DNA of 44,696 nucleotides from Escherichia phage Pandora71. A model generated the notes under the pieces. It saw only the letters and a program-made list of their open reading frames with translations. It had not been told where the DNA came from and ran no database searches. Position 1 is the stretch's first letter. The number at the start of each line of letters is the position of its first letter. Both the position numbers and the translations under genes were made by a program. This document shows, in pieces, positions 9,966 through 10,788 of this stretch. The stretch lies in sequence record PV841870.1, one strand, 5' to 3'.

Positions 9966-10730
9966 TTAGCGCGGAATGCCGCAAATCTCGTTAAGTGTTT
10001 TCACGTCCAGCGCCACTGCCGTGGATTTTGGCTTGTCTGGGTTTGGAATGAATTGTTCCACTTCAGGCCACGCCTTGATCAGCTTCTTATCGGTATTGTG
10101 CATATCCAGCACGCCGGTAACGGTTAGCTTGAACGCGTCATACTTAGCTCGCAACTCGCGTCGGGCCTTGTCGTTACGGTCCAGGCGCTTGCAGAAATCA
10201 TGATCCGCCGGAAAATCAGCACGGCAGCGGGGCTTATAGATCGGCAGCGCTTTCCCGTCCTCGTCCAATTCGCACACAGAAGCCAGCATAACTTCTTCGT
10301 ACCCAGGCACAATATCGCCGAGATCTGGAGATAGCTTATTCATGTATTTATCTTCCCAGTATCCGCGATGTATTCGGTATTGTCGTCCGTCACCGCTCAA
10401 TGACAGTGTGCGCACATTTCCGCCTGCGTTGATTTCGAAAGTGGCGTCATAAACTCTGCCGATACCGTTCGGGCTGTCGGCATCATATCTATACGTCGCC
10501 TTGTTGGTGTATACGCAGACGCCGTACATCTGCGACGGATCATTGCCTAATGCTTCAATGTGTGCGAATAGCTCGGCGAACGTATGAATGCCCACCGGCA
10601 TACAGTGCAACGTAATGTCATACGCCAGGTGGCGTGAGTCCATCATGAGTTTTTTAGCTTCAGTAGCGATTTCGTGGTCGCGCAGGATGTTAGCCAGAAT
10701 CTGGTTTTTAATGTCTTTCGTCAGTCTCAT
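9966..10730 (-). CDS. hypothetical protein (254 aa), reverse-strand gene inside head module
   Basis: ATG 10730 with GAGGA RBS; own promoter and terminator; no recognisable motif. Confidence 0.6.
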   Translation of the reverse strand: MRLTKDIKNQILANILRDHEIATEAKKLMMDSRHLAYDITLHCMPVGIHTFAELFAHIEALGNDPSQMYGVCVYTNKATYRYDADSPNGIGRVYDATFEINAGGNVRTLSLSGDGRQYRIHRGYWEDKYMNKLSPDLGDIVPGYEEVMLASVCELDEDGKALPIYKPRCRADFPADHDFCKRLDRNDKARRELRAKYDAFKLTVTGVLDMHNTDKKLIKAWPEVEQFIPNPDKPKSTAVALDVKTLNEICGIPR

Positions 10731-10758
10731 TTGAGTGTCCTCGTTGTTGGTGTGCAAC

Positions 10759-10788
10759 CAATATAGTGCAACCAATACGCGGATTGCA
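10759..10788 (-). promoter_or_regulatory. putative sigma70-type promoter (TTGCAA-N18-TATATT) with TTGGTTGCAC repeats
   Basis: -35 at 10783-10788, -10 at 10759-10764 on minus strand; downstream GGTTGCACACCAAC identical to element at 74-87. Confidence 0.45.

Follow-up and report, generated by a model that had tools for sequence, protein, structure and literature searches.

What is a gene doing on the opposite strand in the middle of a block of head genes, and what does its product contribute to the phage? We asked this question of Escherichia phage Pandora71 (sequence record PV841870.1), whose 44,696-nucleotide sequence, taken in full and referred to here as the window, is a Dhillonvirus genome as judged from its sequence, with 93–95% DNA identity to many Dhillonvirus phages (PTXU06, Pubbukkers, SECphi4, EK99P-1, and others) over the 2 kb around the gene. 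A first-pass annotation, made from the sequence alone, had noted a 254-amino-acid (aa) open reading frame (ORF) on the minus strand between the spanin pair and the scaffold gene, with its own early-type promoter and a bidirectional terminator, and had taken it for an acquired accessory gene. This ORF is indeed present, at 9966–10730, and we identify it as nmad5. The explanation that we find probable, although we hold it with modest confidence, is that nmad5 is the usual occupant of a self-contained antisense cargo slot, and that its product is dispensable, non-morphogenetic, and acts by binding, most likely not as an enzyme.

Start codon, family, and predicted structure of Nmad5

The gene and the parts of it on which the following argument relies are:

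9966–10730, minus strand: nmad5 coding sequence (CDS), 254 aa plus stop codon, a full-length match to PF18757 (Nmad5) and phrog_1965
10738–10742, minus strand: ribosome-binding site (RBS) GAGGA, read from the sequence, 7 nt 5' of the ATG at 10730
10083–10085, minus strand: codon 216 (AAG, Lys), the residue linked to escape from the defence system Tmn
9969–10034, minus strand: codons 233–254, the C-terminal tail KPKSTAVALDVKTLNEICGIPR

Read from a TTG, the minus-strand ORF spans 9966–10775 (269 aa), and read from the first ATG it spans 9966–10730 (254 aa). We take the ATG as the true start because GAGGA lies 7 nt upstream of it, because the −10 hexamer of the promoter falls inside the TTG extension, and because the N-terminal MRLT recurs throughout the family (R2 in 151 and L3 in 142 of 171 aligned members); this RBS is also kept in SM_S22, Pubbukkers, and PTXU06. 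The 269-aa form was rejected as an N-terminal over-extension, as were the longer annotations of two relatives: the extra 80 residues of SM_S22 CDS0006 (334 aa, locus L004 2066–3070) cross the promoter and enter the scaffold gene on the opposite strand, and Pubbukkers gp07 (381 aa, locus L011 5079–6224) likewise extends across its own promoter into the scaffold gene. The lesson for annotation is that several GenBank records over-extend nmad5 across its own promoter, and, because the SM_S22 annotation is too long by 80 residues, its K296 is K216 of the shorter form. The 254-aa product has a mass of 28.9 kDa; its isoelectric point is 6.45 (family median 7.7), on which ground a DNA-binding role based on charge was rejected.

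No motif had been recognized in this protein by eye, a view that did not survive profile searches. Residues 1–253 align with positions 1–206 of Pfam PF18757 (nucleotide modification associated domain 5, Nmad5) at E=9.9e-54 (183 bits, cutoff 27), and the protein also matches phrog_1965, a PHROG of unknown function; an NCBIfam sigma factor match (15 bits, cutoff 247) was discarded as noise. A profile search of 1.84 billion representative proteins returned only 372 relatives at E≤0.001, most of them 170–250 aa long and matching the N-terminal 50 and C-terminal 90 residues. Members of the family are found in phages of Escherichia, Pseudomonas, Vibrio, and Bordetella, and are common in lambdoid and Shiga toxin (Stx) phages. 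Family conservation, derived from the alignment of 171 of the relatives, is concentrated at R2-L3-T4, G104, P167, T213, L217 (98%), W221-P222-E223 (98%, 98%, and 91%), P229, and a C-terminal L246-N247 (163 and 168 of the 171, or 95% and 98%) followed by G251-L/I-P253. All family motifs (RLT, G104, T213/L217, WPE, and the C-terminal LNxxxGLP, each at frequencies of 71–98%) are present in the Pandora71 product. The conserved residues are mostly hydrophobic, Gly, or Pro, the only polar ones being R2, T4, T213, E223, and N247, and an A-D-H is partly conserved. Dhillonvirus members carry ~70 lineage-specific extra residues (~71–90 and ~121–165; family occupancy 0.07–0.39). Identity to Dhillonvirus orthologs is 81–93%, with 91–93% for the closest database proteins, and residues 237–254 (TAVALDVKTLNEICGIPR) are identical in a homolog with only 36% overall identity.

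The family owes its name to neighboring modification genes: Nmad5 adjoins the genes for a 5-hydroxymethyldeoxyuridine (5-hmdU) kinase and a deoxyuridine monophosphate (dUMP) hydroxymethylase in YuA, C5 and MT-A70 methylases in locus L015, and an N6/N4 methylase, YAcAr, and a dGTP diphosphohydrolase domain in locus L018. No such neighborhood was found in the window, where the neighbors are spanins and scaffold, nor in mEp235, L001, or L016, and the papers found to mention Nmad5 report no biochemical activity.

Of the two routes suggested by the first-pass annotation, homology search thus led to the PF18757 family, and structure prediction led to no known fold. Two AlphaFold2 models were built, the first from a 21-sequence alignment (predicted local distance difference test, pLDDT, 74.8; predicted template modeling score, pTM, 0.69) and the second from a 47-sequence alignment including distant relatives (pLDDT 80.0, pTM 0.75). 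In both, a hairpin of helices at the N-terminus is followed by a small beta-sheet, a long helix (178–209), two short helices with the T213-to-E223 motif, and a C-terminal tail, which is modeled less confidently than the preceding helices (pLDDT <50 at 234–248 and 250–254 in the first model and at 233–238 in the second, in which 10-residue block means over 231–254 are 50–69). High conservation combined with low model confidence suggests that this tail may be a docking peptide that folds on a partner. Beta-bridges are modeled at residue 2 and at ~213, and if these two pair together, the best-conserved N- and C-terminal motifs would be adjacent. A profile search of PDB sequences gave nothing below E=0.1 (the cupin KdgF, at E ~0.1, was taken as a chance match), and BFVD returned other Nmad5 proteins only. 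The predicted models lend no support to a known methyltransferase, glycosyltransferase, kinase, dioxygenase, or nuclease fold.

Borders and contents of the antisense slot

The following elements delimit the slot, together with one promoter elsewhere in the window to which its promoter was compared:

10760–10789, minus strand: sigma-70-like promoter, TTGCAA (10789–10784), 18-nt spacer, TATATT (10765–10760)
10746–10776, minus strand: repeat pair ATTGGTTGCAC, at 10776–10766 in the spacer and at 10762–10752 just past the −10; candidate operator
9941–9961, both strands: bidirectional hairpin terminator, ending the spanin transcript (plus) and the nmad5 transcript (minus)
45–87, plus strand: sister promoter, TTGCAT (45–50), 17-nt spacer, TATATT (68–73), then the same GGTTGCACACCAAC

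The TTGCAA-N18-TATATT promoter, the downstream element that it shares with the promoter at 45–73, and the two-strand terminator had all been read in the first pass, and each of them held up. The promoter is the sole match of at least 9/12 in a scan of 9300–11300; since 1.7 such matches are expected by chance per 2 kb, the hexamers alone carry no weight. The weight of the call comes from the exact 20-mer TATATTGGTTGCACACCAAC shared with the 45–87 element and from the conservation of the whole promoter whatever gene follows. This 20-mer occurs twice in the window, at 10765–10746 (minus) and 68–87 (plus), for 0 expected in 100 shuffles, and in SM_S22, PTXU06, EK99P-1, JLBYU60, TheodorHerzl, and HK578 the promoter stands ahead of differing cargo in the form ...AAATTCGCTTGCA(A/T)... 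ATTGGTTGCA.. TATATTGGTTGCACACCAAC. Within the 20-nt element at 10765–10746 lies an inverted repeat, TTGGT-N5-ACCAA, for which a role as a 5' RNA hairpin was judged unlikely, its left arm being at or before the expected transcription start. At the other end of the slot, the 9941–9961 hairpin (8 bp, G+C-rich; −15.6 kcal/mol on the plus and −15.9 on the minus strand, z −2.7 and −3.3) is flanked by a T-rich tail on each strand, and the HK578 record carries an independent terminator annotation for both strands at the same site.

Between these borders, the contents vary. Among 45 of the 157 matching phage records, sampled at even spacing, nmad5 is alone in the slot in 25, is accompanied by an extra gene in 15, and is not intact in 4, with one slot cut by the record end. 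Examples of each arrangement are:

nmad5 alone: the window, Pubbukkers, SM_S22, SECphi4, SECphi18
Extra gene and nmad5: PTXU06 (135 aa), JLBYU60 (122 aa), EK99P-1 (53 aa), with longer inserts in SM_W22 and EP23
Other cargo, no nmad5: HK578, the type species (140-aa HK578_006)
Other cargo, no nmad5: TheodorHerzl/Bas14 (172-aa sliding-clamp-like protein; locus L012 1241–1759, minus strand)
Other cargo and a remnant: JL1 (109-aa gene and a 74-aa N-terminal Nmad5 remnant)

The gene is also carried by GeorgBuechner, KarlBarth, and Oekolampad. Because relatives keep the promoter and terminator and vary the cargo, we read the locus as an accessory slot and not as a morphogenesis gene. Presence in all relatives and structural or morphogenetic homology were both looked for, and neither was found.

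Some of the other cargo can be described further. The extra gene of PTXU06 sits exactly between CACCAAC and the nmad5 RBS, and a hairpin without a T-run (GGGGC-GAAA-GCCCC; locus L008 ~1640–1665, minus strand) separates this 135-aa cargo gene from nmad5; it may be a transcript-stabilizing or attenuating element, or the remnant of an inserted cassette's terminator. The 172-aa cargo of Bas14, which is also found in Shigella phage EP23, resembles half a sliding clamp (phrog_947 'DNA polymerase processivity factor', 3e-9; TIGR00663, 2e-5, and PF02767, 1e-4, both below cutoffs), and was named 'RusA-like resolvase' via phrog_3007, probably wrongly.

The history of the gene within this slot was evaluated from its composition, substitution rates, and position in distant phages. 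The G+C content of nmad5 is 51.0%, for 54.4% in the genome, and its third-position G+C content (GC3) of 0.596 equals that of its neighbors (0.59–0.61), on which ground a recent foreign acquisition was rejected. Compared with five relatives, nmad5 displays ratios of non-synonymous to synonymous substitution rates (dN/dS) of 0.12–0.18 (dN 0.037–0.065, dS 0.21–0.56), while the scaffold and MuF-like genes are at 0.00–0.05 (dN 0.00–0.012, dS 0.10–0.26), i.e., dN is 3–22 times higher in nmad5 than in these flanking genes (~6–12 times in most pairs). These values indicate that nmad5 is a real gene under purifying selection, with alleles that are older and faster-evolving than the flanking DNA. In the loci L001 (36% identity) and L016/L017 (~23%), Nmad5 is again encoded in an antisense block between a Mu_F-family gene and scaffold/capsid genes. 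In two of these, the unrelated metagenomic phages L001 (4892–10322) and L016 (4817–9832), the block consists of 12–18 small antisense genes including Nmad5, with a ParE-like gene in one block and lysozyme in the other. From these sequence comparisons, the site appears to be an old accessory-gene site of this head-module type, reduced in Dhillonviruses to one or two genes, and nmad5 seems to have long resided in a slot of variable content, since its GC3 is unremarkable and distant phages share the antisense position. In the earlier description of an "acquired accessory gene", the word accessory can be kept, given the variable presence of nmad5 (with other genes in HK578 and TheodorHerzl/Bas14 and a remnant in JL1), its lack of structural homology, and its deletability, whereas the word acquired oversimplifies its history, given its GC3 and the site shared with distant phages.

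The repeats at the nmad5 promoter recur across the genome. The 9-mer TTGGTTGCA, the core of ATTGGTTGCA[C/T/A], is found 12 times in the window for 0.26 expected under mononucleotide shuffling, and the repeat 11-mer, with one mismatch allowed, 9 times for 1.1 expected. The 9-mer sites are:

41–49, 72–80, 30047, 30059, and 41460, plus strand: TTGGTTGCA
10761–10753, 10775–10767, 26870, 31965, 31982, and also 808 and 3307, minus strand: TTGGTTGCA

Most of these sites are paired, 12–31 bp apart, at promoter-like intergenic positions, where they fall on the −35, within the spacer, directly past the −10, or at +1; one of them lies in the spacer of the window's best sigma-70 promoter (41481–41452, 11/12), where the replication genes diverge. 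Syntenic sites are retained in Pubbukkers. This distribution suggests that the repeats may serve as an operator through which one regulator would act on several transcription units. As for nmad5 itself, the sequence points to an expression that is independent, driven by the host polymerase, and probably early; we infer this timing from the sigma-70-like promoter, the repeats at promoters, and the lambdoid phage mEp235, in which a full-length Nmad5 (E=3.7e-72) is encoded in the pL operon between N and kil/erf. In lambda, this position is delayed-early.

Escape from Tmn and the possible action of Nmad5

An ortholog of this gene has already been studied experimentally. SM_S22 CDS0006 has the same flanks and strand, with 86.4% nucleotide and 87.5% protein identity, and SM_A8 CDS7 likewise qualifies as an ortholog, so on sequence grounds the Pandora71 gene is the nmad5 described in these two phages and the published properties would apply to it by extension. 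Yamashita et al. 2025 (Commun Biol 8:290, PMC11846954) reported that Tmn escapers of SM_S22 and SM_A8 share one nmad5 substitution, K216E in SM_A8 and K296E in SM_S22, that this substitution alone confers resistance, and that its reversion restores Tmn sensitivity. Deletion of nmad5 leaves the phage viable and still Tmn-sensitive, wild-type nmad5 phages without an active anti-Tmn gene are Tmn-sensitive, T1 is also blocked by Tmn, and cloning of nmad5 failed "due to its apparent toxicity" (PMC11846954). Since both wild-type carriers without an active anti-Tmn gene and the deletion mutant are sensitive, wild-type nmad5 is not an anti-Tmn gene. The same study calls Nmad5 "a DNA modification enzyme" and takes the 334-aa SM_S22 annotation as real (PMC11846954); the label derives only from the family name. 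In the family alignment, position 216 is K in 87 and R in 26 sequences (K or R in 113 of 171), and it adjoins the near-invariant L217.

The window also encodes, at 31202–31660 (minus strand), a 152-aa protein with 77% identity to SM_S22 CDS0035, the SM_A8 counterpart of which is reduced to a 36-residue fragment. By sequence, this is very probably the published anti-Tmn gene ORF35, in which case the window would hold both known Tmn-related determinants. The gene is one gene downstream of the TTGGTTGCA-pair promoter at 31983–31956, and the PHROGs name of its family, 'DNA ligase', is probably wrong. [quoted passage not shown] PADLOC returned no catalogued defence or anti-defence homolog, its match to Cas2b (E=0.034) being treated as chance-level noise.

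These observations could be combined as follows. Host RNA polymerase would transcribe nmad5 from a promoter separate from the late operon around it, in a slot whose borders are fixed by a sigma-70-type promoter with two ATTGGTTGCAC repeats and by a two-strand hairpin terminator, and whose contents vary. The protein would bind a host or phage partner rather than catalyze a reaction. The candidate surface for this binding is where the family is most conserved: the R-L-T strand at the N-terminus, T213 to L217, W221-P222-E223, and the C-terminal L-N-x-x-x-G-L-P tail, which is flexible. Such an interaction would disturb the host, in keeping with the toxicity reported from cloning, and would alter what the membrane NTPase defence Tmn perceives. 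The K216E charge reversal on this surface would then change the interaction and lead to escape from Tmn, as removal of the protein would not; an interaction that is altered and not lost would explain escape by missense mutation without escape by deletion. The early timing, the non-catalytic mode of binding, and the nature of the partner are the steps that we infer.

Several points weigh against this explanation. The term "non-catalytic" rests on negative evidence, and an enzyme of novel fold, with a small R/T/E/N site, is possible; in YuA-like and other phages, Nmad5 sits among DNA-modification genes, hence its name; and no Nmad5 partner is known. The structural models are only moderately confident (pTM 0.69 and 0.75), with poorly modeled insertions at ~71–90 and ~121–165. 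With regard to timing, we found no Dhillonvirus transcriptome in the literature, and that of the comparison promoter at 45–73 is unproven. The toxicity is "apparent", from failed cloning only (PMC11846954), and K216E is also compatible with other models, e.g., a mutant protein that directly blocks Tmn.

Four other explanations have to be weighed against these data. Nmad5 could be a DNA- or nucleotide-modifying enzyme, or the obligatory specificity or adaptor subunit of one, with Tmn sensing the modification or being blinded to it, as the family name implies and Yamashita et al. assume (PMC11846954). The modification-gene neighbors in YuA, L015, and L018, the Dam-like and Dcm-like methylases encoded elsewhere in this genome (identified by synteny with Pubbukkers gp33 and gp37), and the few conserved polar residues (R2, T4, T213, E223, N247, and partly A-D-H) would all be in keeping with such an activity. 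We nevertheless consider it unlikely: the protein has no similarity to any solved enzyme fold, its conserved residues are few and mostly non-polar, its neighbors in the window are spanins and scaffold with no modification genes, and its family is common in lambdoid and Stx phages, which to our knowledge do not hypermodify their DNA. Dhillonviruses are also reported to be sensitive to restriction-modification relative to the 7-deazaguanine-modified Queuovirinae (PMC8594841), and the unchanged Tmn sensitivity of the nmad5 deletion is hard to square with Tmn sensing a modification made by Nmad5. A further serious contender, albeit again an improbable one in our estimate, is that Nmad5 is an anti-defence protein directed at another host system, and that K216E broadens its specificity so as to neutralize Tmn. 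A variable accessory slot with its own promoter, the much faster evolution of nmad5 than of its neighbors, and the presence in the window of an anti-Tmn homolog downstream of a promoter carrying the same repeats are all consistent with this, and a single missense mutation that gains a function while deletion is Tmn-neutral is the pattern typical of an inhibitor acquiring a new target. Yet PADLOC gave no meaningful match, host toxicity on its own would be unusual for a pure inhibitor, and the spread of the family, with a strongly conserved core, over phages and hosts that differ widely points to a target that is itself conserved and of a housekeeping type, and not to a fast-moving defence protein.

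The two remaining explanations appear far less probable, to a degree that we regard as slight for each. Defence-escape mutations usually map to the sensed protein, and here two phages independently changed the same codon, a change whose reversion restored sensitivity, as would be expected if wild-type Nmad5 were the trigger sensed by Tmn and K216E abolished its recognition. This is largely excluded by the deletion phage, which is still Tmn-sensitive; moreover, Tmn blocks T1, and no Tunavirus is among the organisms named for the tblastn matches in the phage collection, in which 10 further groups are not named. A morphogenetic or lysis-related role is what the position in the head module beside the spanins would suggest, and this position between MuF-like/spanin and scaffold/capsid genes recurs in the distant L001 and L016/L017. 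Lysis genes (DUF2514, lysozyme, or muramidase) are also often close to family members (L001, L015, L016, L018, and C130_2). On the other side stand the opposite strand, the gene's own promoter and terminator, its absence or truncation in viable relatives, the viability of the deletion (PMC11846954), the lambdoid homologs in the early pL operon, and the lack of any structural-protein homology. Overall, the reading of Nmad5 as a dispensable, partner-binding occupant of the slot is the one that we retain.

Genome setting and comparison with known systems

The elements around the slot are:

9481–9840 and 9713–9952, plus strand: i-/o-spanin pair, the latter with lipobox LSAC, upstream
10797–10824, plus strand: weak candidate divergent promoter (TTGCGA, 16-nt spacer, TAATAT; 8/12), which would serve the scaffold–capsid genes
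10880–11581, plus strand: scaffold gene, from the annotation of relatives

Based on synteny with annotated relatives and on direct hits, the plus-strand order is portal (PF13264), a 367-aa head-morphogenesis protein, the embedded spanin pair, then, past the antisense nmad5, the scaffold gene and beyond it the major capsid gene (PF20036). If the 9941–9961 hairpin terminates upstream late transcripts, the scaffold–capsid genes probably need re-initiation near 10797–10824, where an inverted repeat, GCGAT-N7-ATCGC (10799–10815), overlaps the candidate promoter in a region conserved in relatives.

The sister promoter at 45–87 serves the small genes from 101 to ~2023, in a unit that ends at a strong terminator (2027–2056). 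By synteny, this promoter comes after the primase/helicase gene and its terminator precedes the holin genes; we read it from the sequence as a separate transcription unit and assign it no timing. A 59-aa ORF (101–279, plus strand) lies directly behind the CACCAAC end of the 45–87 element, while the equivalent promoter of Pubbukkers is followed immediately by the homolog of window ORF 277–603. We count ORF 101–279 as a second small gene to have been inserted immediately behind a promoter of this type. The only minus-strand gene besides nmad5 in the terminase-to-tail block, at 25617–26591, is also an accessory gene: it lies between tail fibre genes, is preceded by a promoter at ~26871–26843 (ATTGGTTGCAA-N16-TAATAC), and has as its 324-aa product a membrane protein of phrog_1265 ('moron'). 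At this position, Pubbukkers carries a 'superinfection exclusion' gene of 72 aa.

A more speculative proposal, to which we give little credence as a whole, would be that the repeat ATTGGTTGCA(C/T/A) marks an accessory and counter-defence regulon under one regulator, that the site after CACCAAC is a landing site for cargo, and that Nmad5 founds a new, non-enzymatic class of phage proteins that determine whether the membrane KAP-NTPase immunity of Tmn is triggered. Members of this regulon may include the nmad5 slot, the 25617–26591 membrane-protein slot, the operon with the anti-Tmn homolog, and the small-gene unit after 45–73. If this proposal were true, the trigger of Tmn would become directly tractable.

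Nmad5 was already a named Pfam family, with orthologs experimentally studied in the genus Dhillonvirus. To this, our analysis adds the architecture of the cargo slot with its conserved promoter and candidate operator. It also corrects over-extended annotations, finds no structural support for an enzyme, and places the escape residue beside the best-conserved residues of the family. What remains of most value is the function of Nmad5 and its unexplained link to Tmn: the family is widespread (Escherichia, including Stx-converting prophages, Pseudomonas, Vibrio, and Bordetella) without a known biochemical function, Dhillonviruses are used in phage-therapy engineering, and a single Nmad5 residue decides whether Tmn stops the phage. 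Taken together, the slot, the lack of support for an enzyme fold, and the placement of the escape residue point toward a search for partners over DNA chemistry, and the slot with its conserved promoter could be a practical insertion site for engineered cargo.

Compared with nmad5 of SM_S22 and SM_A8, the Pandora71 gene shares the position between spanin and scaffold, the strand, and K216, with 87.5% identity to the former and the 254-aa length of the latter, and is a different allele. It is a full-length, high-scoring member of PF18757/phrog_1965 with all family motifs, and differs from the family at large by the Dhillonvirus insertions of ~70 residues and by having no adjoining modification gene. 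The Nmad5 of the mEp235 pL operon belongs to the same family and is encoded among early, dispensable genes for host takeover and recombination; however, that protein is 207 aa long with ~34% identity over the C-terminal 97 residues, and its gene is part of a long operon, whereas nmad5 is read here from its own promoter. A further comparison is with morons, described in lambdoid phages (HK97 and lambda) by Hendrix and colleagues as accessory genes that are inserted in late operons and transcribed independently, each having a promoter and a terminator of its own. Classical morons are expressed from prophages of temperate phages and often have a deviant base composition. Like them, nmad5 has, at the sequence level, its own promoter and terminator within a structural block, is dispensable, and is replaced or absent in some relatives. 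Unlike them, it is carried by a virulent phage, its GC3 does not deviate from that of its neighbors, its slot is found at the same position in distant phages, and its promoter is one of a set, spread over the genome, that share a repeat motif.

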